A stretch of 63,874 nt of DNA, filler included, from Stramenopiles sp. TOSAG23-2 (GCA_900128395.1; 7 parts of 7 records of this genome joined end to end with filler, not necessarily neighbours in it), one strand, 5' to 3'. Shown: positions 9,169-52,867, numbered from the whole stretch's first letter. Numbers and translations: made by a program. Notes: a model not told the origin generated them from the letters alone.

Positions 9169-12100
9169 CACACGTTAATAAATCTTTTGCTGGAATTCTA
9201 CCGGTGTAATCAGGCTGAGATGGTGTTGATGGGATAGAAGAATTTGATGTCGCATTATCGATTGGGATATATATATATTCAGTAATGTTAATATTACTGC
9301 TAGTGCTAGTGCTTTTCGTAGGATCACCCAATAAAGCAGGTTGTAATAAATTAGCACAGATAGATATATAACAAAATTCATATATCCACGATGCAATATT
9401 TCTGTATCCAGACGATTCTTGCACACGTTTCCGCTTCTCGTGATCTTTAATCGCTAGTGGCACAGTTACCAAGTAAATCCATGCTACAATAAGAAATAGC
9501 GCAATGATAGTGCCAGTTGGAGGATAAATCATGCGTTCATCATATGCAAACAATCCTTTGGTGCCACAGATAGATATATAACAAAATTCATATATCCACG
9601 ATGCAATATTTCTGTATCCAGACGATTCTTGCACACGTTTCCGCTTCTCGTGATCTTTAATCGCTAGTGGCACAGTTACCAAGTAAATCCATGCTACAAT
9701 AAGAAATAGCGCAATGATAGTGCCAGTTGGAGGATAAATCATGCGTTCATCATATGCAAACAATCCTTTGGTGCGACATAGATCATTGTCCAAGACATTG
9801 CGTGTGTTTGATAAGAACAAAACTGTAGTTATAATCCCTTTGGGGAAGTAACCATAAGTTGTCATGCCAACTGTTGTTTTCGTAATCAATAATGCAAAAG
9901 CTAATAACATCTGAAAGGGGGCGAAAAAAATATGAATTAGACTAATAAGATTTGGCAATGTTAGTCTGACAATTGGACTTCTCCAAGTACGCTCCGAAAA
10001 TTCTTGCCGCTGCTTATTTGTAAAATGAAAACCTACATTAAATGCAATGATGCCAAATATAATAACTAAGATCGCTATGAATGAATTTATACGAGTATTT
10101 GCGTCTGGAAAAAAAACATTGTCCCCTTGCAACGTGATAATAGGTATTATCAAGCACGTAAGCCATAATCCACCACTTAATAAAAAACGTGGAGTCGTTC
10201 CCAACACTTTTCGAAATAATAAATGTAATAGCGTAGCAAATGAAGCTGCTGGTACAAATATGGCATAAAAAATTACGCGTATTATCACTACATACGTTTC
10301 CCAGATAAAAAGTAACGAAAATAGCTGCCAAATCTCTCTAAGTGAGTGAGATAAATGTATTTCAGCGACTTCTACTGCTTCGGTTAATGATTGAAATGAC
10401 GGTATATCGCCAATCAAACGCGGTAACCTTATCAACGTTATTGCAACCAGGGTGAACAATATTATAAACTGCATTATATTCCACATATCGTAGCACATCT
10501 TCACAAGTTCCATCCGCAATACGAGTCGCAAACGTTTTGAATTCAAGCCACCTCTTTTCGTTTCTTTCAACACACGTGAAATAAAATTTGGAAATCGATA
10601 TATTGTAAATATTATTATCATAAGTAAAACAATAGTCAGGACATCCATGATTGCATATTTCAATGCTGTAAGACAATATTTTCGCAAATCCTGTTCTTTT
10701 CTACGCCAAATACCAGGCTTATAGGCACTACCACCATTTAAAGGTGGGTGGTTTGCATCGTGCAGCAGTTCATTGAATCGTTTCGTCAATTCCTTTAAAG
10801 TCTGTTCTAAGTTGGTATCTGCCTTTATTCGCTCCGCATTATTTAATTCTAACATCATAGGTCCTTCATACTCTTGATCGTAGATGCACTCTTGGACTGA
10901 TAAATTGACATTTGCGTGTATTACTGGCAATTGAGATTTTCGAATAGCTTCTCGTTCAAATTGTTTACATAGCGATTTAAATTTAATATCATCAACATAC
11001 GAATTGTTTTCATTCAAATTTTTTATTAGTGCAGACAATTTATGGTGAAACTCATTGATTGATTTTTGAGATTTTCGTCTTAAAGCTGTATCTATCGTCT
11101 TCACCCAGTGTAGTTTCGTGTTACTACTCTTTCCACTTTCGTTAATGAAGGCATACATATATTCCATATGATTATGTAAAGTAATGTCAATATCATATAT
11201 TTCTTGCAAGAAATATTTAGTTTCTTCAACAACATTATGTTTTGAAGATAAATTCATTAACCAGATTGCGTGGAAAAAACGCCATGGCATGAGTACAGAA
11301 AGTAACAAGCATGTAAGATGTAGAAGATCAACTATAATGTTAAATATGCATAAGAGGACAATATGCCACATGGAATCACGAAAACCAGGACCTTTGTTCC
11401 AAAATGGTAACAATTTTTCTTGTGTCATATCCTCTTCTACAATGTTTGTATTGTAAATCGCATCACTTCCAACTGTAAAAGCATTATCAACTACATCGTA
11501 CAAATCAATTAGAGGCAACTTAGCATTGCAGATATTAATCGTCTTTTTCTTTTTGTCCATGGTTGTACCTTCAACTTGTAGCATGATATCAAAAATATCG
11601 TGTATATCTTGAGCCGATGTTGTCTCGTTTGGTTTTGTTGTACTGCTTTTTAACATCAAACTTGCTAAATGTTTTTTAACGTTTTTCACATGTGCTTTAT
11701 GTGTTGTTTTAACAACAATTAATATTTCATGTCCTTCCGGTCCTTTCGGCGGTTCATGTTTTGGATCCATTATATCACAAGTAACTTTTAAAGGCTGGAC
11801 ACTTTTAGCAATTTGGACAACAAGGCCACCAAATATTTCTTCGATGTTTTCCCAAAATTTACCTTTGCCTAATATGCGCATTTGAGTGACTTGGAATTGA
11901 TTGCAAAAATCGACAGTATTACGGATATTAGTGTTAGTTACTCCGTGCAAATGAAACTCGATTACTCCTTTGATCTTCGGAATATGCATTTCAAGTCTAT
12001 TCATTTTTACTTTTCCAATTTCAGTAACTGGTTGGCTAGCACTTGACATGAAACTTAAAATACATGATGGTAATCTATAAAGCGTAAATGCAATTACCAG

Positions 12101-12397: not shown

Positions 12398-15300
12398 ATC
12401 TTCATTTTGGACTCTGATATCTGCAACATGTGGTGGTGCTGGTGGTGGTGCTATTGCTGCAACCGTCACAAATTTCCATCTATGATGAAATACGAATACA
12501 AATCCAACAAATGGTAACACTAGAAGATCAAGAAGAATCAACAATGTAGTTATAATGACGATACGAACACGATTATTTGAATTTACGTAATAAAAGTCAC
12601 TTGGACCAACAAATGATAAATAAATTTCTTGCTCCTGTTCCCTATGCTGCTCCTGTTGCTCATACTCGTAACCTTGTCTTTGCAAGTCAGTCAAGTCATT
12701 TTGAGCAATATGTTCATCTACAACTTTCGCTGCTGGCGTTACAGCTATTGTATTATTATTATCTCCACGATTATCGTTATCGTTTGTATTGACTGCTATG
12801 GCAGTAATTTGCACATCTTCCATTTTTTTTGCTGTCGAAAAACGTCGTAAATACTGAATCAAATTGCGGAAATTCTTTCTTAAATCTTCACCTCTATACG
12901 TACTTACACAAATAATGAGTATAAATGGCAAACTTAATAAATCAATGAGGAAATGAAAAAAATGCAAAAATACCTGAAAAACTCTAGTGCAACTTTTCCG
13001 ACATTCTAAATGATATAACTCATTTTTAGCAAAGTAAAGATGGTACACTGGTCCAGAGCGGTATATAGAAAGTAACAAAATTAATGTAAATGGCAATGTC
13101 ATTATGTCTATTATCAACAATACTACATTGAGGATTGTTATTATGTAGCGTTCCATAGAATCTTCAAAGCTAAAGCCATGGTTTTTGAATGAATTAATTA
13201 TTGGTTCACTACGCCATATGGTGACTACTAACAATAGCTGAAATGGTAACATGATTATATCTAAAATAATCAATACAAGTGAAACTATTAAAAAGATATG
13301 TCGTTCCATAGTTTCTTTGCATTTAAACTTGTTTTCTCCTTGTTTGTTTATTAGATCTTTTAGCAGCCCATTCCGATAGCATGTAAGACATACTATTATC
13401 AACAATGGCAAAAAAATAATATCTAATATAATCAAAATGAAGTTCGTCAAAACAAGTTTTTTAGTTTTCCAATTGAAATCATGCTTCATTTCCTTGGATA
13501 CATTTTGGAAACGATACCATGTAACTAAAATAAGTAAAATAGCTGGGACAAAAACAATATCAATGATGGTTAAAAAACCTTGCTTAATTATTTGCTCTCG
13601 TGTTTCATACATATAATATTTTTCAAATGCATATCCATCGTATTTATTATCTTCCACATTTACAGGATGTGAACGTAGAGCATCCTCTCCAAAATGATTC
13701 TCCTCTTGCCCTACTAATTGAGTTGGTATCCTGGTACGATTTTCTTTTGGAATAATTTTCCGTATATTTTGTATGCGTTTATAATGATTGTATAATATTC
13801 TAACACGAATAACAAAAGCACATGTAATTATTAAAAATGGTACAGCGAGTATATCTAATAACGAAAACAAACCAAAGTAAATTGCAGCCTTACGTGCTTG
13901 AACATTATAAGATCTATGTACATATATCTTATTTCCTTGGTATTTGCAATAATAATACGGTTGCAGAATACCGAAATCAACCCTTTTCCCCACAAAATCT
14001 TGAGCTTCGCGACGTGTTCCAGATCGAAATGCTTGCAGCCTTACGTGCTTGAACATTATAAGATCTATGTACATATATCTTATTTCCTTGGTATTTGCAA
14101 TAATAATACGGTTGCAGAATACCGAAATCAACCCTTTTCCCCACAAAATCTTGAGCTTCGCGACGTGTTCCAGATCGAAATGCTTCTACTAACTCTTTTG
14201 TTAATTGTTTTCCGTGCATACCACAGAACAAACCAATTAGTCCCAATGGTATTGCAAAAATATCGATTATTGAGCCGAAACAATTAAACAAGCAAATAAA
14301 TCTGAAATTGATGCGAGAATGTTTCATTTCTACACTTTCATTATCTTCATTATTATGTAATTCGTAATCATACGAACGTTCGTTTATCGGGTTTAAAATT
14401 TGACATTTGTCACTATTTATATGAATAATTTCTTTGATGGTATCAAATAAAATGAAAAGTATACGGTGTGGTGCTATGAGGCTAACAATGAAACAAGGAA
14501 GTGCTGAAAATGTATCCCCTATACTATTTCCAGCGAAAACAAAAGCCATACGACAAAAATGTAAACTTCGAAAAAATTGAAACTTTCCATAAGTTGTACA
14601 TTCATTCTTATATAGATTTTTTACTTCGTTTCACAATGAAACAAGGAAGTGCTGAAAATGTATCCCCTATACTATTTCCAGCGAAAACAAAAGCCATACG
14701 ACAAAAATGTAAACTTCGAAAAAATTGAAACTTTCCATAAGTTGTACATTCATTCTTATATAGATTTTTTACTTCGTTTCTATCTAATTTTTTTAAACTA
14801 TAATATTGATATGTAAATGTGAAAAAAATAGGATATACACTGCGAAAATATGCAATGGCAAACCATGGTGATAAAAATAAGCTTAACACAAATAAAAAAA
14901 TACCAAAGATATCAATTAAAGCCCTGCCAAAGTTGCGTGCAACTGTGAGACGCAATAATACATTGTACGAGTGTTTTATTTCAATGTCTTCATCTAGTTT
15001 GCGCTTGCATGTCATTGCTAAATACATTTCTTTTAAAAATGGTAATGTTCTAGTTGGGACACAAATGGAAAATGCCGCTGCAACCACTAGAAATATATCT
15101 AAAATAGCCAAACAAAATGATACAAAACCTGACCAAATAGCTCCACCACGATGTTTCCCAACTTTCTTATACAACGACATTTGTTGTAGTTCTTCTTGAC
15201 TATAAAAATAATTTTTATTCGATTTTAAAGGTACAAACAATGCATAGAAATAGACATATGGTGATATAAACGTTCGGGATGGACATATGCAACTAGCAAG

Positions 15301-15477
15301 CATAAATGCAAGCCCTATTATATCCAAAATGATATAAAAAATTTCTCTAATTAAATACCAAGTATATTCCACTACGACACTAATAATATATTGCAAGGTA
15401 TGAATGAACTCTGTAAACGCATCATGTGGTGGTTGTTGGTTGTTATTATTAGTGGTAGTCGTAGTTGTCGCGCTCAT
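9169..15477 (-). CDS. Large polytopic membrane repeat protein (>1900 aa, 3'-partial), split into three track ORFs by exact tandem duplications
   Basis: ORFs 14608-15477, 13977-14549 and 9113-14146 join in frame once the 148-bp and 151-bp duplications are removed. About 16 hydrophobic D-x4-P-x10-R-type repeats. Confidence 0.75.
9355..9774. repeat. Exact 210-bp tandem duplication (in frame)
   Basis: 9355-9564 repeated at 9565-9774. Confidence 0.95.
13882..14185. repeat. Exact 151-bp tandem duplication (frameshifting)
   Basis: TTGCAGCCTTACG... starts at 13882 and 14033. Confidence 0.95.
14485..14780. repeat. Exact 148-bp tandem duplication (frameshifting)
   Basis: ACAATGAAACAAGG... starts at 14485 and 14633. 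Confidence 0.95.
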
Positions 15478-15582
15478 ATTGTGTATATAGTAGAAATTAA
15501 ATAATGTAAGATAATGTAGTAGTCGTAGTTGTCGCGCTCATATTGTGTATATAGTAGAAATTAAATAATGTAAGATAATGTA
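15455..15582. repeat. 64-bp tandem duplication spanning the start codon
   Basis: GTAGTCGTAGTTGTCGCGCTCAT... at 15455 and 15519. Confidence 0.9.
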
Positions 15583-30817: not shown

Positions 30818-33800
30818 TTACAAATCGTCTGGTTCCTCATCTGTTTCTTTAGATTCCGTAGTATTATAGTTTTCGGCACGGTCATCTGGTAACTTCAGAT
30901 TAGCTTTTAACTCTTCTTCTTCTGTGCTATACCATACATGGATCACATCATCTTCATTCTGAACCATCTCCTCATCCTCAAGTTCCTCTACGTATTCATT
31001 TATTGCAATTTTTAACTTGTTTCGAAATTGTTTAAATACTCTATAGCCACTCGATGGAGATTTAGCGTACTCAGATTTGCCATATTCGACTACTGACCTA
31101 TGAAAAGAAATATTTTTTTTGCATTCATCATTGTATTTTCTTAAAATTGTATCAATTATTGCAGCAACCTCCTTCTCTATAAATTTTCCATAGGGGCATA
31201 AGCAGCTTGGTTTAACAAATCTACTAGTAAATGCATCGTTATTCATCCGAGTAAATTCCATTGATAAGTTTTTCTTTAATGTCTTCTTCATTGACTCAAA
31301 CGCCTTTTTATTCTTCTTTCTTGAATCAGACAAAAAATCATCACCTTTGCATTCTTTTAATATATCATGTTGCCCAAAATTTCCACAGAAAACAAATATA
31401 GTGTATCTAATAGAAACTTGGATGGCTTGTCCTTGAGCAGCTACATTGGATAACATACCCTCTTCTAACATATCATAAAATTGGGATAGTATGTCCCGCA
31501 TTGGTTTAGATTGTCTATCGTTAGCGCCTCTGTCAGAAATCATGGCTTTTTCAAACTCATCAATTATAGCAACATTTACTTTGTCTTTCCAATGCTTATT
31601 CCCACTATTACACTTCGTCAAAAATTGTACAAATTTCGACCCCTGCGAATTACCGCCACACCATTTTGCACCAACACCCCAAATATCATCTTTGGTCGTA
31701 CTTGTTTTAAATTGTATGTTAAAGGTTCGTGTTGGATCACCACTAGACAAAGCATGACCTAGCTGTCTTGCCATGTTACTTTTTCCACTACCAGGCATCC
31801 CAGTCAATATAATAATAAGCGGGTTCTTATCAGCAGCTTGACCCTTCATTTCTTCATCATGCCAACTTTGAAACTTAGCAATAACTCTACGTGCAATTTT
31901 AGTTGCAGCTATAGAATGACCAACAGTGACATATTGTAGACTTGGTAATAGTTGTAAACCTAGAGTTTCATTTTTTTGTTTTCTTCTTAGATTAATTTTT
32001 GGTAACTGTAGCGCACGTTTAAGAAAATACATTGCCTCTAAATTTCCAGAGGCATGCACATATTCCTGTATATTTATTCCATGGAAAGTAATTCTAGGAT
32101 TAGCTCCCTGTGATAACAGATATTTGAATATTTCAGTTTCAACGTATGTCGGGAATTTTTCTATCACAACTTCCTTCAAATCTGTTGGTAACATTTCCAA
32201 AAGCGCGTCGGTTTTTCTTCCCATAAGCAGTGCATACAGAAGCGGGGGCACCTTATATGTAACATTACATAAATTTGGATTTGCACCATGTTTAAACAGC
32301 TCATCAATCAAAGTAACATGTCTGTATATACCTTCCCCGCCTCTTATAACAATTGGATTTTGTCGTATAGCATAGAACAAAGGTGTGTCCCCAAGCTGGT
32401 CTTTTTTGTCTTTTCTCTTACTTAAAAGTGCCAGATTTATCAACTTGTCGTTTTGACTGCATTGCTTATCTATTGCATCTACTTTTTGCAACACTTCTAT
32501 AAATTTACCCCAAACGCTGTGTCCATCATACAGACCTTCCTTTATTCTTGATCTTTTATTAGTATTTTCTATATGTTTACACATATTGTAGAGCGACTGG
32601 AAAACACTTTTATTTTCTCTTCCATTTTTCTTGTAAAATTTTGCAATCTCGTTATTGGAATCATTATTATTAATACCTCCAGATTCTTCCCTATCAGATT
32701 CTTCTCTCGCCTCAGAATCCCCAATTCCCTCTGCATATGTACCATCACTATTAATATAATGATCGTCACTCCCATCTTTGAGTTCATCATCACTTTCACG
32801 ACCCGATTTTTCTTCGTTATTATTATTCTTTGTTTTAAATGACTTTTGCTTCTTGGGTTTCACCTCTCCTGTTGTGATTTTCTTGTTTTCTTTCTTAAAC
32901 ATTAAACTCTTGCATCTCTTGCATAGCGAATAATTAAGTATCGTCGAATAATTAAGTGTTAAAAATATTAACAATATTGTTGCAAAGCCTTGGAATGCAC
33001 GTTGTGCGTATTCTTCAGAATGATCAATATGGTAATTCTTGAAATAGTACATGTGCGGTTTGTGCTTTTCGATATATGTTACAACTTTAAAACAATAGTA
33101 TAACAAAAAGCTTACCAAGAAACTTAGAATTATCGCTTTCAATATATTTATTACTCCTAATTTAAAACATTCGCGTATCAAATAGCACGTAAATGACTGT
33201 GGGAATTTTCGTTTCTTTTTTGGAACGGAATCCGTTCCCGTATCGTTTTTCTGCCCCTCTCTGGTATCATCCAAATTAGCTCTATCAGTTAATCGATAAT
33301 CTGCATCGTTTCTCCGATTCCTACTTCTGGAACGCACACCAGTGACAGCTTCCTCTACGATCTCTGGGGGTTTAAAAGGGAATAGGAAATCCCAGATGGT
33401 GTGAAGTGTTGCTTTGGCAAAAGTAGTACCCGACAACGCATCCTTGCTTACACATTTCAAACACTTATAAACAGCCAATAATAAAAGAACAAGAACAGGA
33501 AGAATTATTAACGGTAACAACAAGAAACGCGACGGGTCATTCCATATACCAACTGGCCAAACAAGGACTAACGAAGGCACCATTCCAACAGCCACATTTC
33601 GGCACATTGTCCAATTTACTTCGTGAAATGATAATTCTATCGCAAATAGAGCTGCCCACAACAAAAACGCATATGCACCATTTTCAAAGTAATTCATGTA
33701 CCAAATTATAACATATATAGTGCTAGAAAAGCATGAAAGACCCATCAAAGTCGCATGCACTACAAAGCGAGCTTTTATTTTTTTCACTATCGGAGTGTCT

Positions 33801-34291
33801 TCTAGCTCTTCTACTTCTCCCGCTGCTTCTGATGGGTTTTCTTTCTCTTTCATCAAATGTTCTTTAGCATCCTTCACTTTATTTGCATCGTAGTCGACAG
33901 CTTCATTTCTATATTTGCCGGAGTCGGAGTGATAGAAACGGCTTACTTTTTGAAACCTATCCTTTACATCGTCTTTACTCAATTTAGAGAAATCATCTGG
34001 TACTTTGGTGTTTTCATTATTTGCAAGTTCGCAATTTATCATATCTGGAGCCCACAGCGTTTGAAGTGCTTCATCTATAACATTCGCTGTCGTCACCCTT
34101 CTCGTAAATATATTTGAGCAAAATGCACCCAGGATCCTTGCAATAATCCATAAAATTAAGAATATAAATGCGCAGATTAAATATATCTCATGCAAGCAGT
34201 TCCATAGGTATATTAATATAAGTATGACAGCTAATATTTGTTCAAGCCGGGCAAGTTTTACATCCACTTGATTAATCACCTCTTTACACAT
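30818..34291 (-). CDS. Multi-TM / J-domain-like / ankyrin / ClpB(Skd3)-type AAA+ ATPase fusion protein
   Basis: J-like DVKDRFQKVSRFYHSDSG. Ankyrin motifs GDTPLFYA, LFKHGANPN, LLSQGANP. Walker A GMPGSGKS, Walker B AIIDEFEK, DMLEEG, sensor-1-like IFVFCGN. First ATG is 34291 (the track's 34390 is TTG). Confidence 0.8.
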   Translation of the reverse strand: MCKEVINQVDVKLARLEQILAVILILIYLWNCLHEIYLICAFIFLILWIIARILGAFCSNIFTRRVTTANVIDEALQTLWAPDMINCELANNENTKVPDDFSKLSKDDVKDRFQKVSRFYHSDSGKYRNEAVDYDANKVKDAKEHLMKEKENPSEAAGEVEELEDTPIVKKIKARFVVHATLMGLSCFSSTIYVIIWYMNYFENGAYAFLLWAALFAIELSFHEVNWTMCRNVAVGMVPSLVLVWPVGIWNDPSRFLLLPLIILPVLVLLLLAVYKCLKCVSKDALSGTTFAKATLHTIWDFLFPFKPPEIVEEAVTGVRSRSRNRRNDADYRLTDRANLDDTREGQKNDTGTDSVPKKKRKFPQSFTCYLIRECFKLGVINILKAIILSFLVSFLLYYCFKVVTYIEKHKPHMYYFKNYHIDHSEEYAQRAFQGFATILLIFLTLNYSTILNYSLCKRCKSLMFKKENKKITTGEVKPKKQKSFKTKNNNNEEKSGRESDDELKDGSDDHYINSDGTYAEGIGDSEAREESDREESGGINNNDSNNEIAKFYKKNGRENKSVFQSLYNMCKHIENTNKRSRIKEGLYDGHSVWGKFIEVLQKVDAIDKQCSQNDKLINLALLSKRKDKKDQLGDTPLFYAIRQNPIVIRGGEGIYRHVTLIDELFKHGANPNLCNVTYKVPPLLYALLMGRKTDALLEMLPTDLKEVVIEKFPTYVETEIFKYLLSQGANPRITFHGINIQEYVHASGNLEAMYFLKRALQLPKINLRRKQKNETLGLQLLPSLQYVTVGHSIAATKIARRVIAKFQSWHDEEMKGQAADKNPLIIILTGMPGSGKSNMARQLGHALSSGDPTRTFNIQFKTSTTKDDIWGVGAKWCGGNSQGSKFVQFLTKCNSGNKHWKDKVNVAIIDEFEKAMISDRGANDRQSKPMRDILSQFYDMLEEGMLSNVAAQGQAIQVSIRYTIFVFCGNFGQHDILKECKGDDFLSDSRKKNKKAFESMKKTLKKNLSMEFTRMNNDAFTSRFVKPSCLCPYGKFIEKEVAAIIDTILRKYNDECKKNISFHRSVVEYGKSEYAKSPSSGYRVFKQFRNKLKIAINEYVEELEDEEMVQNEDDVIHVWYSTEEEELKANLKLPDDRAENYNTTESKETDEEPDDL

Positions 34292-34973
34292 TATTTCAAT
34301 TGCAAGTGATAAGTGATAAGTACAATATCTTTTTAGAAATATAGTCCAGAAAAACGACCGGTATAATCTATAAAGTATAAATGTATACAATTATTTAGTA
34401 ATTTCGTATTTTGATTTAGGCTGTTGCTTAGCCTTTAGACAGATGTTAGTGATTAGCACATATATTTATAGTATTATAATAATACAATGTATTTAATTTA
34501 GTTTTAGATATTAATATGATGCACATATTAATATAATAAAAAAAAATTGCCGTACGGCGAGAGCCCTGCATTAGGTCTGGATTGGGGGTTGTGGCACAGC
34601 GATGGAATTCGTTGGAGTTAAGGAGGGTTTTGGCAGTTTGATATCAATTGCTTAATATCATAGGGGATATTGGTTTTCTGATTGTAGTCGAGGCGTAGTG
34701 TAATATCGTATGCGTTGTTGTACAGTATTAAGTATAGTACTACTGTACTATCCATTCATATATAGTGTGTGATAGTGTTGTGCTGTATCGATGTATACGA
34801 TATTGTGTATTGGCTGTCGCAAACGTTATTTTAATCGTAAATTAAAATATAAATGTAGGCCAGTAGGGCAAGTGGGAAAAATAAAAAAAAAAATAATACA
34901 TCAGCGCAATGCATCGGTTCTATATATACAAGTGTGTACAATCTCATTTTATATATTTCTCTTAGTGAAACAG

Positions 34974-35225
34974 TCATTTTGTATTTAATTTTTTGTTGCA
35001 TGTATTTATATTCTCAAGTGTTTTATTTAAGCAAGGCAGTGGTTTGCCCTGATCAACTTGCACAGAATATGCTAAATTATAATAGTTTAAAGCATTGTTG
35101 TAGTCTTCCTCGACTTTGTATGCTTCAGCAATTTTGATGTAAGAGGTTGAAAGTGTTGGGTTCTTGCTGCCCAGTAGCGTTTTCTTTAAGTCTGTTAACG
35201 CAATGCGAGTCTTGATGGCCCGCAT
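34974..35225 (-). pseudogene. Degenerate TPR gene fragment
   Basis: LLGSKNPTLSTSYIKIAEAYKVEEDYNNALNYYNLAY resembles kinesin-light-chain-type TPR (LG..HP..A.SY.NIG..Y...GDY..AL.YY). Confidence 0.5.
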
Positions 35226-35354: not shown

Positions 35355-35735
35355 GGCCTGCTATGTTCATATGCGGCAGGACGAAAAGGCCCCTGCTATG
35401 TTGATATAACAGGAAACGGATTTAGGCCCTGCTGTATTCATATGAAACAGGCGACGGATGTAGCCCCTGCTGTGTTCATAACGAAAGAGACGAAAAGGAC
35501 CTGCTGTGTTCATATTAAAAAAACGAAAAGGCCCCTGCTGTGTTCATATAACAGGAACGGATTTAGCCCCTGCTGTGTTGGTATGCAAAAGTGAAAAAAG
35601 CCCCTGCTGTGTTCATATTAAAAAAACGAAAAGGCCCCTGCTGTGTTCATATAACAGGAACGGATTTAGCCCCTGCTGTGTCGGTATGCAAAAGTGAAAA
35701 AAGCCCCTGCTGTGTTCATATTAAAAAAAAGGAAA
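35355..35735 (+). repeat. 11-unit array: ~19-bp conserved GCCCCTGCTGTGTTCATAT plus 14-19-bp A-rich spacers; 103-bp higher-order repeat
   Basis: Units start at ~35355, 35388, 35425, 35463, 35497, 35530, 35566, 35600, 35633, 35669 and 35703. Confidence 0.92.
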
Positions 35736-36264
35736 AGCATAAAATACTTAGTACTGTGCTTATGCTAATATTAAGGTGAAATGTAATAAAAATAACAGAC
35801 TCCCAATTAGAGTACCCCAATACCACCCCCTTAGTACTACTTACAACTTAACTATACTACTCTTTCGTACTACAACTAAAAATAATAATTTAAATTCCTT
35901 ATTTACTTTTTTTAACGACTTTTATGCTCTTTTTCTCTTCCTCTCTGGACAGCCCCAATGCACTCTAATGCAGGGGATATATAATAATACATTCAGGTAA
36001 TGTGCTAATATTAATATTATTATTAATACCAGGTATTTATATTATATAATTCCCTGCCCTGAAGTGTGTGGGTGTCAATAATGTATCTTGGTTTCTATAT
36101 GTTGTTTTTAATATTATAAGGATCTATTTATGTGTAATCTTGTAGTATAATATCTTATAGTGTTTATAGTGTAAAAGTATCTATTAATGTAGTTAAATTT
36201 CACTTAGCAGCTGAGTGTTGAGTGTGTACACTTCAAAGGGTGTGGCAAGATTATAGCGAAGTGC

Positions 36265-37025: not shown

Positions 37026-40000
37026 TTACTCCAACTGACCACCATCAAAACTTCCTCTTGTTTTCCTATTTTCAATATCACGTTTGTATTGTGCACATAA
37101 TTGCAAGATCCGTGATCTCCATTCACCATCTAAATTCAATACCTTTGCTTGACGTTCTACATTATCTAATTTAGAATATAGAGATGGCATTAATGATTCA
37201 TTTCCATTGATAACTTGCGGTTTAATATCTTCTAATAAAGATAAGATTTCATTCAACGCAAATGCTGTACTTTGCCTTTTTTTATCAACATTCATCCAAA
37301 TCTGTAACAATTCAGTGATGTTTGATACTTGCTGTTTCAATTCTGCAACTTTATCATGTGTAAATGGATAATTAGTTGAATGCACTAATTGTGTAATAGA
37401 ACTTATAATATGTAAATTATTTCGTACGGTTGTTCTCAGGTTATCTTCCGTTAATTGCAATAAATTTTCGTTGTAAAACAATGTTCGTGGTGATTTCTCC
37501 CAACGATGCATGATACGTATCAATTGATCATTCAATGCATCCCATTTTTCCCCAATCATTTCTTTGATTTTCTTTTTTAAAGATGAACGAAATGTTTCCA
37601 TTGCTTTTTGTAACAATGTAATATGATTTTGACCTTGCATATGCGATGAACCATCCAATCTACTTAAACTTTCCGGGAAACCGAGTTTGACATCTTCCGA
37701 TAGTAATTTAATATATAACATATAAGCTTGTACCATCACATTCACACGTCGTCGTTCCACACTATTAGATATGCCTAATGTCGATACCAACGCTTGTGTT
37801 AAATCAATCACTTTGTCTTCACCAACACCTTTTGCAGAACTTTCATACCATACCGTTTGCCAATCTGGATTAATGATTGGTGGTACAGGAGGCATATCTT
37901 GCACAGTTTCCTCCCGCTCGCTAATTTTAATATTTTTCGGTCTCCAAGATGCATACATAATAATATTGCGTAATAATGCATATAAACGAAACAATAAGCA
38001 AAGTGTTCGGTAAAATGGAAAAATAATCAACGTTCGTTTTGTCGCTTGTAAATCTGGTCGATGGCGTAAAACTACGTAATTAAAAATGATCAATTCAAAA
38101 TACAATATGGCATAGAAGACTACAAAGCACATGAATAACGAGAAAATATCATATACTGCTAAGCCAACGACTAAATATAAACGCATCCAATCCAACATAA
38201 TATTTACTACTTCTTGTGCCATGAATGGTTTTAAAATCCATGTTTTATTATTCACTACCCAGCCAGATAGAAATTCACGAACAAATGTCATAAATTTACG
38301 CTGCGCACATAAATCCCAACTAGTAACACGTTGTCGAAATAAAATCAATAATCGTTCTGGTGCAAATGTAGGTACAACTGCTGATGCACTTACTGCTATG
38401 ACGTAATTTTTTTGAATTCGGTGTAACAATAGACCCATATATAAATCTTCCCCATGGAAAACAGTATCATGATCCCATAAAATTTTACTACCGAGAACAT
38501 CTCTACGCCATAATGCAATAGCACCATGACAACATGCGGTAGTACCACCTAAATATTGAAATTGTTTAACAAACCCAGCCATTTTATATTCTAAATCTTG
38601 ACAATTTACTAATTGATTATCATACCCTGTTTCCGTAGCTGCTTCAATCACATATGCAACTGCTTTTATATCTGGATAACGATTCAATGTATTATTAGGA
38701 ATATGTAAATCTGGTGGCAATGGGACATCATCATCAATCATCATTGCATATAAAAAATCCGGCGATTCCCCACGCCGTACTAATTCAGGGATCCAATATT
38801 CCGTTGCCCAATACATTGCATGGCTTTTATTTCCTTCTGGGACATATAAATAATTTATTTTTGATCTACCAGTAGGATCATGCTTTAAACTGACTTCTAA
38901 ACATACATCTTCCGTACGATCAATTGGGTGTCGAATTGGTGCATTATCACATACGAATATAGCATTTGGTGGAAATACAACTAAAGCGCTTTGCAAGGTA
39001 CGAGTAAATGTTGCTCTTCGTTCCTCCGTAATAGTAGATTTATGACATGCAATTAATAAGCATGTATCTTGTACTAATCCACCATGTTCATCATCTAATA
39101 AATTAACAATACCAGTTGGGTCTTTAAAAAATTCACGTGGTTTAATCGTAAGCGTAGCATCTTTTTTCGATACCCCAACTTGGTCATAATATTTTGGATT
39201 TGCTCTTCCACGAATTAAAGCTGGTTTTGGCCATTGTACAGTTGCCGCAGCGCAAAAAAATAACCCAGCTTCCAAGATAACAACTAATAAAATTAACCAA
39301 TTATATAAACCAGTTTGTGTTTTGGTTAATAATTTCGCAAAATCAAGTAAAAGATCTTCATAAAATTTCAATTTCCCCCAATCTTCACTTGTATAATAAT
39401 TTTTAGGGGAGACAGTTAATACCCACCAAAAATTGAATGTTCCAATTAGAAAAAACAATGCATAAAATGAATATGCACGTCTTGATAATCCATATTTTGA
39501 ACGTTTTGATTGTAATTTTTTACGTTCTTGCCAACCTTTCAATGCTTGGTTCCATTCTGGGGAATGATGTATATTTTTCCTTCGATCTTCCCCAATTTCA
39601 ATACCTTTTGCACGTTCTTTCCTATCCATTACTTTTTGTTGCCGATCCCCTTCTTTTAATTCAGCACCAATTTCAAGATCAAAACTTTTAATTAACCATT
39701 CACCAATAAACCAATATAACCATAAAAAAGTATTACAGCCTAGCATAACTTTGAAAAATAAATATGATAAAGGTGAACAACGCTTGTAACAAAATGGATG
39801 TCCAGTCCCATTTAACATTTCAAAATTATCACGACCACATGAGAAAAAATACAGCAAGGGGCCTGGAATATTCCATAAACCAAAAAATCCATTGCAAAAA
39901 ATACTTAATGCGATAATTTGACAAATGTATAACGATGAACCAAGTAATAAAGTACGACGACAGACAAAATACATAAATGATGGTGTTTTTTTCTTTTTTA

Positions 40001-40139
40001 CTACTGGTTCTTTTTTTACTTGTTGTTGTGCTCGCGGTGGTGGTGGCTGTTGTTGTTGTGGTGGTGGAACCAAACGTCGTTGTGGTTCAGGTGGGATAAA
40101 ATTATCGTTATTTAATAGATTTACTTTTGTTTCCTCCAT
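37026..40139 (-). CDS. Membrane-embedded processive GT2 glycosyltransferase (hyaluronan/chitin-synthase-like architecture)
   Basis: N-terminal TMs; LLIACH, IFVCDN, GNKSHA, MIDDDV (DxD), QDLEY, HGAIALWRR, GEDL, FRQRVTSW (QxxRW variant); C-terminal TMs. Confidence 0.82.
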   Translation of the reverse strand: MEETKVNLLNNDNFIPPEPQRRLVPPPQQQQPPPPRAQQQVKKEPVVKKKKTPSFMYFVCRRTLLLGSSLYICQIIALSIFCNGFFGLWNIPGPLLYFFSCGRDNFEMLNGTGHPFCYKRCSPLSYLFFKVMLGCNTFLWLYWFIGEWLIKSFDLEIGAELKEGDRQQKVMDRKERAKGIEIGEDRRKNIHHSPEWNQALKGWQERKKLQSKRSKYGLSRRAYSFYALFFLIGTFNFWWVLTVSPKNYYTSEDWGKLKFYEDLLLDFAKLLTKTQTGLYNWLILLVVILEAGLFFCAAATVQWPKPALIRGRANPKYYDQVGVSKKDATLTIKPREFFKDPTGIVNLLDDEHGGLVQDTCLLIACHKSTITEERRATFTRTLQSALVVFPPNAIFVCDNAPIRHPIDRTEDVCLEVSLKHDPTGRSKINYLYVPEGNKSHAMYWATEYWIPELVRRGESPDFLYAMMIDDDVPLPPDLHIPNNTLNRYPDIKAVAYVIEAATETGYDNQLVNCQDLEYKMAGFVKQFQYLGGTTACCHGAIALWRRDVLGSKILWDHDTVFHGEDLYMGLLLHRIQKNYVIAVSASAVVPTFAPERLLILFRQRVTSWDLCAQRKFMTFVREFLSGWVVNNKTWILKPFMAQEVVNIMLDWMRLYLVVGLAVYDIFSLFMCFVVFYAILYFELIIFNYVVLRHRPDLQATKRTLIIFPFYRTLCLLFRLYALLRNIIMYASWRPKNIKISEREETVQDMPPVPPIINPDWQTVWYESSAKGVGEDKVIDLTQALVSTLGISNSVERRRVNVMVQAYMLYIKLLSEDVKLGFPESLSRLDGSSHMQGQNHITLLQKAMETFRSSLKKKIKEMIGEKWDALNDQLIRIMHRWEKSPRTLFYNENLLQLTEDNLRTTVRNNLHIISSITQLVHSTNYPFTHDKVAELKQQVSNITELLQIWMNVDKKRQSTAFALNEILSLLEDIKPQVINGNESLMPSLYSKLDNVERQAKVLNLDGEWRSRILQLCAQYKRDIENRKTRGSFDGGQLE

Positions 40140-51211: not shown

Positions 51212-52867
51212 TCAAACACCAACGACGGGACCTCTATTTTTATTAAATAACAATGACACTTTTTTACGCTTTTCTTCTTCTTTACTATCATTATATTCAC
51301 CACCTTTGCCTTCTTTCACACGATCATCATTCATTTTACTACTACTACTACTATTACTAGTACGTCCTAATTTATATGCACCACCTGCATCTAATAATTC
51401 ATATGCTTCAATTAAATCACATATTTTATCATTTGCTGCAACAAATTTTTCTTCTTCCATAAATTTTGTATAATGGTGTACATGTGCTTTACGTTTATAG
51501 GAACGATAAAAATCTTTCTGTATACCACGAAATGTATCTGCAATTGCACAATTATTTGCTAAACATAATGCAGATGGTGCAGATGGATTCATAATCGATG
51601 CAGTGGAACACATACCAGTTTTAAATCCATCTAAATTCCATGGTGCCATTTTTATTTTACTTTTAATATGTTCAATATTATTTTGCATCCCGGAAACGGA
51701 AATATTTGGTCCACGTACTATAACGGCACATGCTAAATACATATGCATACGTGGATCAGCACATATAAGTTGTGTTTTTCGCGAAAATGAATCACGAAAT
51801 ACACGATCTAAACTTTTATTATTTGCTACATTATTATTTTTTTTACGTATTCTATTTTTATTATTTCTATTGTTGTTATTATTATTATGACGGAAACCAC
51901 CACCACCATAATGATCATTAAATGTTGCAACAACTGGGCTTAAACTGGGCATTAAAAAATGTAATCCAGGAAATGGTACTAAATTTGTTGTAATTTCATT
52001 TAAATCAACATTTAATGAACCAGGAAATCTCATACTACATGTTAAATTAGTCAATACATGTGCAGCAATAGTATTCATTGCATCAAATCCATCCCCAGCT
52101 TTTTGTTTATTATTACGATTATTATTATCACTTAAAGTTGATGTAACTACTTTACCACCACCTAATTGTGCACCACGTTTTTTCATCGTACCAGCTTCTT
52201 CACATATATCTATTAATGCTTGATTTTCAATTGGTAATACACAATCAGCATGATTTGCTAATTCATTTAAACTTAACATACTATTATATGGAGATGTAAT
52301 GACATCATCATTACGTGATGGTATGACTGCAGTAGTAAAACGATAGACGTCTTGAAAATCATCTTCTAACATGTTTAATATATATGTACCTAAACCACTA
52401 CCTGTACCACCACCTAATGAATGTATAAAGAAAAACGATTGCAAACTATCGCATAGTTCCGTTGCTTGCCTGACTGCATTGTAAATTTTATCATGATATT
52501 TGGGACCATAAACACAATGTCCATGTGCCCAATTATTTCCACTACCAGATACATCTTTAATTAATTGCCTTCCATCAAATAATTCACCTAAAGGTCCATT
52601 TAATGTTTCATTTAATACACCTTCCTCCATATCAACTAATACAGCACGTGCACGCAACCATTCTAACGGTGTATCGCCTCTGCCCAGTGGTATTTCCAAA
52701 GCATCTTCGCCTCTTGTCGATACATGTCGAAAAAAAGAAGACATAGATTCATCATATACATTATTAGTTGAATATGCAGCATGTTCTGATAATGCCATAT
52801 CCCAAAAACGACAACCTAATTGATTTCCTGCTTGTCCAATTTGTATGGTAATTAATTCACGTGGCAT
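51212..52867 (-). CDS. TUBE1: Epsilon-tubulin
   Basis: MPRELITIQIGQAGNQLGCRFW, RAVLVDMEEGV, DVSGSGNNWA, GGGTGSGLGT, DDVITSPYNS, SMRFPGSLNVDLNEI. Confidence 0.95.
   Translation of the reverse strand: MPRELITIQIGQAGNQLGCRFWDMALSEHAAYSTNNVYDESMSSFFRHVSTRGEDALEIPLGRGDTPLEWLRARAVLVDMEEGVLNETLNGPLGELFDGRQLIKDVSGSGNNWAHGHCVYGPKYHDKIYNAVRQATELCDSLQSFFFIHSLGGGTGSGLGTYILNMLEDDFQDVYRFTTAVIPSRNDDVITSPYNSMLSLNELANHADCVLPIENQALIDICEEAGTMKKRGAQLGGGKVVTSTLSDNNNRNNKQKAGDGFDAMNTIAAHVLTNLTCSMRFPGSLNVDLNEITTNLVPFPGLHFLMPSLSPVVATFNDHYGGGGFRHNNNNNNRNNKNRIRKKNNNVANNKSLDRVFRDSFSRKTQLICADPRMHMYLACAVIVRGPNISVSGMQNNIEHIKSKIKMAPWNLDGFKTGMCSTASIMNPSAPSALCLANNCAIADTFRGIQKDFYRSYKRKAHVHHYTKFMEEEKFVAANDKICDLIEAYELLDAGGAYKLGRTSNSSSSSKMNDDRVKEGKGGEYNDSKEEEKRKKVSLLFNKNRGPVVGV

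Follow-up and report, generated by a model that had tools for sequence, protein, structure and literature searches.

What does a gene encode when a single reading frame runs from a multi-pass membrane domain, through ankyrin-type repeats, into a Clp-type ATPase? The question is raised by an open reading frame (ORF) on the minus strand at 30818..34291 in DNA from Stramenopiles sp. TOSAG23-2 (GCA_900128395.1); by 'the window' we mean the whole stretch that was analysed, 63,874 nucleotides including filler. An earlier note on this DNA had described the product as a membrane-anchored fusion of a J-like segment, ankyrin repeats and one ClpB-type AAA+ module. We consider established, from sequence comparison and predicted structure, the domain make-up of the protein, the intactness of its ATPase and pore-loop motifs, and its likeness to the motors of Skd3, ClpC and ClpB, the last two through their second nucleotide-binding domain (NBD2). 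The architecture of ankyrin repeats plus an NBD2-type motor is known; what is new here is its fusion to a multi-pass membrane domain. On this basis we propose, with a little better than even confidence, that the protein is a membrane-tethered Skd3-like unfoldase, disaggregase or extractor, in which an orphan domain of ~8 helices is followed by a linker of ~115 residues, the ankyrin repeats and the NBD2-type AAA+ domain. The parts of the gene, with putative transmembrane helices (TM) numbered from the N-terminus, are as follows.

30818..34291, (-), whole coding sequence (CDS): 1157 codons plus stop from the first ATG, uninterrupted
34112..34237, (-), putative TM1-TM2 hairpin: residues ~19-60 of a 46-residue hydrophobic stretch (18-63), hydropathy peak 2.72
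33764..34102, (-), charged soluble segment: residues 64-176, containing the tripeptide HSD
33833-34000, (-), stretch called 'J-like': residues 98-153
33461..33763, (-), TM3-TM6: residues 177-277, four hydrophobic helices
33176..33460, (-), basic loop: residues 278-372, with 18 K+R
32921..33175, (-), TM7 and TM8: residues 373-457, hydropathy peaks 2.28 (378-397) and 1.53 (439-457)
32567..32920, (-), linker: residues 458-575, of low complexity and rich in K, N, E, D and S
31997..32404, (-), ankyrin-type repeats: residues ~630-765, two recognisable repeats and a capping repeat, each with an insertion
30992..31924, (-), AAA+ domain of the Clp/Hsp100 NBD2 type: residues ~790-1100, large and small subdomain
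30821..30991, (-), C-terminal extension: residues 1101-1157, a short beta-hairpin and an acidic tail ending EEPDDL

The ankyrin and AAA+ half

The protein contains one Walker A motif, GMPGSGKS at residues 831-838 (31778-31801), followed by a pore loop, GVGAKWCGG at 872-880 (31652-31678), that carries W877, and by a Walker B motif at 907-915 (31547-31573) with IIDE at 909-912. The Pfam family AAA_2 matched with E=2.3e-9 (38 bits against a cut-off of 27), and AAA_5 and AAA gave weaker matches, bearing out the single AAA+ module with intact Walker A and B motifs that the earlier note had described. In the family alignment R1024 occupies the '..SRI/F' position and R1084 the 'GAR/GYR' position; from this alignment and from the motifs of Clp proteins, we take N971 to be sensor-1, R1024 a candidate arginine finger and R1084 a candidate sensor-2 residue. 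BLASTP against E. coli ClpB placed its best segment in NBD2 (592-731, E=8e-4), aligning Walker A, Walker B, the 'EEG' helix and the sensor-1 Asn and setting W877 opposite the Tyr of GYVG, with only a match the size of a Walker A motif in NBD1. Among NCBIfam models the sole match was ClpV1, far below threshold (E=0.0024, 16 bits against a cut-off of 885).

The predicted fold points the same way. An AlphaFold2 model of residues 575-1157, built on an alignment of the C-terminal part of the query with its relatives, reached a predicted local distance difference test score (pLDDT) of 81.4 and a predicted template modelling score (pTM) of 0.84, with most of the AAA+ region above 85. Foldseek searches of the PDB with this model returned first the chains of Skd3 hexamers (7tts_C, E=1.4e-13), chains that include the ankyrin repeats, and then ClpC and ClpB NBD2; normalized by target length, TM-scores were 0.76 for 7ttr_C (Skd3, AAA+ only) and 0.73 for ClpB NBD2. 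A family profile made from the query and 25 relatives gave its best AAA+ matches to human CLPB/Skd3 chains (8zr0 and 7ttr, 3.8e-65 to 8e-63), ahead of ClpC1, ClpB NBD2 and Hsp104, and also matched ankyrin proteins. In the ESM Atlas the nearest entries were AAA_2 proteins (0.90-0.91) and ankyrin-CLPB-like clusters (0.85-0.86).

The two to three ankyrin-type repeats, also claimed in the earlier note, are supported by the family profile, by helix pairs in the AlphaFold model and by Foldseek, and residues ~630-765 align with the ankyrin repeats of relatives. By sequence and predicted fold, residues ~578-1110 are thus a divergent member of the ankyrin plus single NBD2-type AAA+ architecture of CLPB/Skd3. 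That this architecture is fused in one frame to a polytopic region, as the note had proposed, is borne out by Pfam, hydropathy, profile, fold and BLASTP together. Beyond the small subdomain, the C-terminal extension is modelled with strands at positions 542-548 and 553-557 of the model and a tail below pLDDT 50. The protein terminates in acidic ...EEPDDL, at 30821-30850; in yeast Hsp104 the acidic C-terminal motif, DDLD, is a binding site for TPR co-chaperones.

Integrity of the fusion and the gene model

The reading of a single 1157-codon ORF held throughout: the frame is free of stops over its full length in DNA of ~35% GC, contains no run of Ns, and is open upstream of the first ATG as far as a TTG at 34390. 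In-frame coding signal was positive across most of the CDS. It was strong at residues 481-570, the linker scoring highest of the whole N-terminal half, which makes chance read-through between two separate genes unlikely. Across the linker (458-575) there were no in-frame stops, compared with 3 and 23 in the other frames, and none of 5000 shuffles was stop-free; GC content overall and at third codon positions (GC3) was alike on both sides of the join between membrane and AAA+ parts.

These results bear on the possibility that the cell does not make the fusion at all, the ORF being an assembly join or the ankyrin-AAA+ part being translated alone, as a soluble protein, from an internal start such as Met568. 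In favour of this are the absence of the N-terminal domain from all 29 relatives described below, the onset of similarity to the top relative (P0002) at residue 578, just past an internal Met, and the absence of the exact 1157-residue and 1190-residue sequences from a collection of 15 billion proteins. Against it, neither a stop nor a run of Ns separates the two parts, base composition is similar across the join, the linker has the codon signal just described, and a public gene model also spans the join. We regard such a split as quite improbable.

That public model raises a different question. The earlier note had allowed that the architecture might be an already annotated family, and in part the gene is annotated: a public set of eukaryotic proteins contains an automatic model of the same gene, but as a protein of 959 residues with a different structure. 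The model is identical to the ORF over residues 84-355 and 99% identical over 469-1157 (687/689), so it, too, joins membrane and AAA+ parts; it differs in starting at Met84 and in removing residues 356-470 as a 345-nucleotide GT..AG intron (32882-33226). If this model were correct, the protein would keep TM3-TM6 alone, with HSD at its extreme N-terminus, and would still be anchored in a membrane, with another topology. The existence of the model, the GT and AG at the borders of the proposed intron, and a codon score that is lowest in precisely the two omitted stretches speak for it.

Stop-codon statistics argue that both omitted stretches are coding. Residues 1-83 contain no in-frame stop, compared with 8 and 5 in the other frames, and only 10 of 5000 shuffles of these codons were stop-free; for residues 356-470 the other frames contain 12 and 7 stops, the proposed intron is in frame and stop-free, and no shuffle out of 5000 matched it. 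Both stretches also encode clean hydrophobic helices with K/R flanks. The donor reads GTTCCA, a poor match to the usual consensus GTAAGT, and the other large genes of the window are single ORFs. We consider the shorter model unlikely, and conclude from the DNA that the ORF is real and encodes a single predicted polypeptide.

The membrane part and the HSD segment

Kyte-Doolittle hydropathy in 19-residue windows gave eight peaks within residues 18-457, in groups of two and six, as the N-terminal helices and 'about six more' of the earlier note had led us to expect; the maximum in the C-terminal half was 0.99. After the N-terminal hairpin, TM3-TM6 peak at 178-196 (1.57), 205-223 (1.42, the weakest), 232-250 (1.63) and 256-274 (3.21). 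TM7 and TM8, separated by a 32-residue His-rich loop, lie within the stretch that the public model treats as an intron. If all eight helices span the membrane, both ends of the protein would be expected on one side of it, together with the HSD-containing segment, the basic loop and the part with the ankyrin repeats and AAA+ domain: the loops assigned to that side carry 3, 20, 1, 18 and 24 K+R, against 0, 1 and 5 on the opposite side. Within the basic loop, residues 357-363 (33203-33223) read PKKKRKF, which we take to resemble the nuclear localisation signal of SV40, as a lead and not as evidence; K/R runs of at least 5 occur in 3 of 27 window ORFs.

No homologue of the membrane part was found. 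A word-indexed search with residues 1-470 at E<=10 was empty, as was the same search with the whole protein; a scan of 1,835,955,588 cluster representatives gave no relative matching this part; and Pfam yielded only a sub-threshold HXXEE match.

Between TM2 and TM3, HSD stands at residues 121-123 (33923-33931), flanked by two predicted helices. The tripeptide that the earlier note had seen is therefore present; the J-likeness it had drawn from it did not exceed chance. Such a segment could serve as a J or J-like domain, functional or regulatory, and recruit Hsp70 to the anchored Skd3-like motor, which would make a self-contained membrane bi-chaperone of the Hsp70-Hsp100 kind. Several observations would fit this. 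Smith-Waterman alignment to the J domain of E. coli DnaJ falls in the register helix II-HPD-helix III, with H and D matched; an AlphaFold2 model of residues 61-176, from the single sequence, shows helix, HSD loop, helix; and the nearest ESM Atlas cluster to residues 1-470 is a 447-residue 'J domain-containing protein' with PF00226 in 100% of its members. J domains lacking HPD are termed J-like, and they occur in membrane proteins such as CJD1 (PMC3196505).

Each of these observations has its counterpart. The DnaJ alignment score was equalled by 133 of 2000 shuffles and is not significant; alignment to the J domain of E. coli DjlA was out of register, with 326 of 2000 shuffles scoring as high. 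Pfam DnaJ gave no match, either with the whole protein at E<=1 or with residues 64-175 at E<=10. The 61-176 model has a pLDDT of 45.9 and a pTM of 0.20, and its 0 Foldseek matches in the PDB are, at this low confidence, uninformative more than negative. The ESM Atlas lead scores 0.76 and shares 118 of 256 features, a level that according to the tool shuffled proteins often reach. The hallmark HPD is replaced by HSD, and the HPD-less domain of CJD1 is reported not to bind Hsp70 and not to complement an E. coli dnaJ/cbpA mutant (PMC3196505). Skd3 itself works without Hsp70 or Hsp40 (PMC7343390). A J-type function is, in our judgement, distinctly unlikely. The J-domain reading of the HSD segment is unsupported, and we prefer to regard this stretch as a charged helical loop: an H-x-D motif alone is poor ground for calling a J domain.

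Relatives, neighbours and a proposed tethered motor

A full HMMER (phmmer) scan of the same 1,835,955,588 cluster representatives returned 29 proteins at E<=0.001, the best with 37% identity, and in 29/29 the best stretch lay inside query residues 656-1112. By BLASTP, similarity to the top relative, P0002 (707 residues), extends across query 578-1102. Pfam at E<=0.001 on 19 of the relatives found AAA_2 in 18 and ankyrin families in 13. Those with names include a Seminavis robusta (diatom) 'Caseinolytic peptidase B protein homolog', an Andalucia godoyi (jakobid) 'ClpB' and a Biecheleria cincta (dinoflagellate) transcript; in the ESM Atlas, clusters from fungi, diatoms and plants have this Pfam content too. 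The alignment and profile used 25 of the 29, leaving out the short P0003, P0007, P0022 and P0028.

A multi-pass membrane domain was found in none of the 29 relatives: none had more than one hydropathy peak of at least 1.6, and P0008 alone has an N-terminal hydrophobic stretch, a single one. The combination that the earlier note did not know from any polytopic membrane protein is supported in its multi-pass plus ankyrin-AAA+ parts, while its J-domain component is unsupported. A limited literature search likewise found no description of an ankyrin-ClpB protein anchored by a multi-pass membrane domain.

For the tree, of 24 rows, we dropped P0015, P0021, P0027 and P0029, which are short in the NBD columns, and added the two E. 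coli ClpB domains, NBD1 and NBD2. P0002 and P0004 join the query in a clade with support 100/99 and a long stem. In this tree, which includes no holozoan sequence, the backbone is a polytomy with E. coli ClpB NBD2 inside it, so that shared origin and repeated fusion are not separable. The passages of two papers that deal with the origin of the architecture place the 'ANKCLP' fusion in stem holozoans (PMC4339202) and the first appearance of Skd3 in choanoflagellates (PMC7343390). Relatives in diatoms, dinoflagellates, jakobids and environmental eukaryotes indicate that ankyrin plus NBD2 is more widespread than those passages state; the wider spread is either shared descent or repeated fusion.

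Some relatives carry N-terminal modules of their own. Among P0005, P0009, P0012, P0015, P0023 and P0021, several start with a W-x-C-x2-C ... C-x2-C pattern, seen by eye, that resembles a RanBP2-type zinc finger, and one, P0021, has a UBA-like match; Pfam backing is weak (zinc finger, E=0.055, in P0015; UBA_4, 6.9e-4, in P0021). If these modules are real, the family would appear to swap N-terminal targeting modules, some of them ubiquitin-binding. In P0007, a 164-residue fragment from the query's own subgroup, the GK[ST] of Walker A is lost and the sequence reads '...LSGVHEQGQVAL...'; it may be an inactive paralogue.

Msp1/ATAD1, FtsH/Yme1 and Bcs1 belong to the classical clade of AAA proteins and have one or two TM helices, FtsH also having a protease domain. 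They resemble the present protein in the principle that we propose for it, a membrane-held, ATP-driven ring that pulls on proteins, and not by membership: its motor comes from the Clp NBD2 clade, ~8 helices make up its anchor, and Pfam detects no protease domain. Sec63 has a J domain between TM2 and TM3, and CPP1 is listed among membrane proteins with J or J-like domains. As in these two and CJD1, a soluble helical segment lies between TM helices, here with a degenerate H-x-D; their domains are recognisable J folds, whereas the HSD segment matches no J profile.

The closest comparison is human CLPB/Skd3, which shares the order of ankyrin repeats, one NBD2-type AAA+ domain of the HCLR clade and, at the C-terminus, a small domain, as well as Walker A and B, an aromatic pore-loop residue, the candidate arginine finger and sensor-2, and which is the best structural and AAA+ profile match. 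According to PMC7343390, Skd3 has a mitochondrial targeting signal and one short hydrophobic stretch removed by PARL; its ankyrin repeats number four, its pore loop reads GYVG and its C-terminal domain is basic. It is a stand-alone disaggregase that requires the ankyrin repeats and the NBD in cis, uses the pore-loop Tyr and needs neither Hsp70 nor Hsp40. The protein described here differs in its ~457-residue multi-pass domain and 115-residue linker, its two to three interrupted repeats, its KWCG and its acidic tail. Where Skd3 has a targeting signal and one cleavable stretch, its N-terminal region shows eight hydropathy peaks, starting at residue 18, and it is 14-16% identical to Skd3 chains when the two are aligned by structure. 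The protist and fungal ankyrin plus AAA_2 relatives are homologous over ~578-1110 and differ in having no multi-pass domain. ClpB, Hsp104, Hsp78 and ClpC are alike in the AAA+ domain: that of the query aligns with NBD2 in E. coli ClpB, and it matches the NBD2 structures of ClpB and ClpC; unlike them, the query lacks NBD1, the middle domain and the N-domain.

Three other assignments were considered and set aside. A true ClpB or Hsp104 does not fit one Walker A motif and a single NBD, with NBD2 alone alignable beyond the P-loop; Torsin gave no match with the query at E<=1, and matches of the relatives to it were weak and mostly below cut-off; and for an FtsH-like membrane AAA protease (M41), no peptidase family was among the Pfam matches at E<=1.

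The surroundings of the gene are those of an ordinary eukaryotic genome. The window has a GC content of ~31%, no tRNA gene was found in it, and it carries long single ORFs on both strands. Pfam scans of its ORFs (26 + 13) identified a Upf1-like helicase, a Kelch/U-box protein, two protein kinases (one with a PH domain), epsilon-tubulin, an EF-hand protein, a sulfatase, PhyH, a UbiA prenyltransferase and a PLP enzyme. Ordinary eukaryotic genes in the form of long single ORFs indicate an intron-poor, AT-rich eukaryote, and not a virus or bacterium, as the source. The earlier note had called the contig rich in repeats and virus fragments; tandem repeats are present, and no viral family appeared in these scans, which are limited.

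These findings also bear on the note's suggestion of a fast-evolving immune or defence nucleoside triphosphatase, in which the AAA+ domain would act as a switch and not as an unfoldase. The protein is indeed rare and divergent, with its 29 relatives, 37% best identity and long stem, and sub-threshold Pfam matches to STAND/NACHT P-loops occur, weakly and in the Walker A region only. PADLOC, however, returned TRIP13 alone (E=0.0094, 13.4 bits), with no stretch passing by itself; the fold and motifs (pore loop, arginine finger, sensor-2) are those of a Clp NBD2 and not of STAND; the neighbours are of housekeeping type; and tblastn with the protein found no paralogue of the AAA+ gene in the window. 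The defence proposal is unsupported, and we rate it extremely improbable.

Several features of the surrounding DNA were recorded alongside. Runs of Ns, mostly in pairs of 44-base runs 12 bases apart, recur about every 9.1 kb, all outside the gene, which lies wholly between two of them; the pattern resembles a masking or chunking artefact more than scaffold gaps. Four two-copy tandem duplications, at 9355-9778, 13882-14185, 14485-14780 and 15455-15582 (210, 151, 148 and 64 bp), have exact or near-exact copies (99-100% identical) and sit in and beside an ORF of 1677 residues with no Pfam match; they could be an assembly artefact or very recent events. About 1.1 kb upstream of the gene start, a tandem array at 35384-35738 is built on the core GCCCCTGCTGTGTTCATAT, with periods of 34, 69 and 103 bp nested in one another. 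A short ORF at 34974-35225 (-) adjoins this array and gave a sub-threshold TPR-like match, the only Pfam match among the small ORFs beside the gene. The upstream neighbour at 37026-40139 (-) encodes 1037 residues with many hydrophobic stretches and a weak, below-cut-off match to family-2 glycosyltransferases (Glyco_tranf_2_3, E=1e-5); its product may be a chitin- or cellulose-synthase-like enzyme. The epsilon-tubulin gene at 51212-52867 (-), of 551 residues, has 30 near-identical environmental sequences in its 90% cluster, whereas relatives that carry a name reach no more than ~50% identity and are scattered over oomycetes, green algae and animals; the AAA+ gene, unlike it, has one near-identical fragment only, of 75 residues. 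The host seems to be common in environmental data yet to belong to a poorly sampled lineage.

For the membrane-tethered Skd3-like motor that we favour, eight helices and the positive-inside rule would place both ends and the large loops on the same, ATP-containing side, in the cytosol or nucleoplasm. By analogy with the family, the AAA+ domains would assemble into a ring as in Skd3, the ankyrin domain would engage clients and the Trp pore loop would thread them. The linker of ~115 residues, predicted to be disordered and flexible, would hold the motor at the membrane, so that it could act on proteins at or in that membrane. Its function would be analogous to that of Msp1/ATAD1 or of a protease-free FtsH, but with a motor of the HCLR clade.

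A number of our own results weigh against this proposal. The ankyrin families of Pfam (Ank_4, Ank and Ank_2) all stay below their cut-offs, the best being Ank_4 with E=5e-4 and 20.7 bits against 22.7. The pore loop reads KWCG instead of GYVG, with the aromatic residue retained as Trp for Tyr. A phmmer search of the PDB with the query alone gave nothing significant, the best match being the McrB P-loop (E=0.046-0.093), so that the link to Skd3 rests on profile, fold and motifs and not on pairwise similarity. The topology argument fails if the weak helix 205-223 is not membrane-spanning, and a membrane part with no homologue leaves its conservation and function without support. A multi-pass domain is missing from P0002 and P0004, the relatives nearest to the query, though these are possibly incomplete at the 5' end. 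Finally, the start at Met84 and the intron of the public model would remove four of the eight hydrophobic helices, and it is in the stretches that this model drops (residues 1-60 and 361-450) that the in-frame codon score is weak.

A bolder version of the proposal can be drawn, which we hold to be very improbable: a self-contained membrane 'dislocase', in which six copies would surround a Skd3-like ring with 48 helices, the J-like loop would recruit or regulate Hsp70, PKKKRKF would target the complex to the inner nuclear membrane or endoplasmic reticulum, and the Trp loop would extract or disaggregate membrane proteins without Cdc48 or ubiquitin. If true, this would represent a type of machine for membrane quality control that is not known to have been described among eukaryotes.

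Motors of the Skd3/CLPB type are known from the mitochondrial intermembrane space of animals, where they are soluble disaggregases that work on their own. The same module occurs here in a distant, poorly sampled protist lineage, fused to a multi-pass domain that 29/29 relatives lack. The case is also a caution against the existing automatic gene model of 959 residues. If the fusion is expressed, it would be a natural experiment in membrane tethering of an HCLR-clade unfoldase, and would offer a simple system for asking whether such motors extract membrane proteins.

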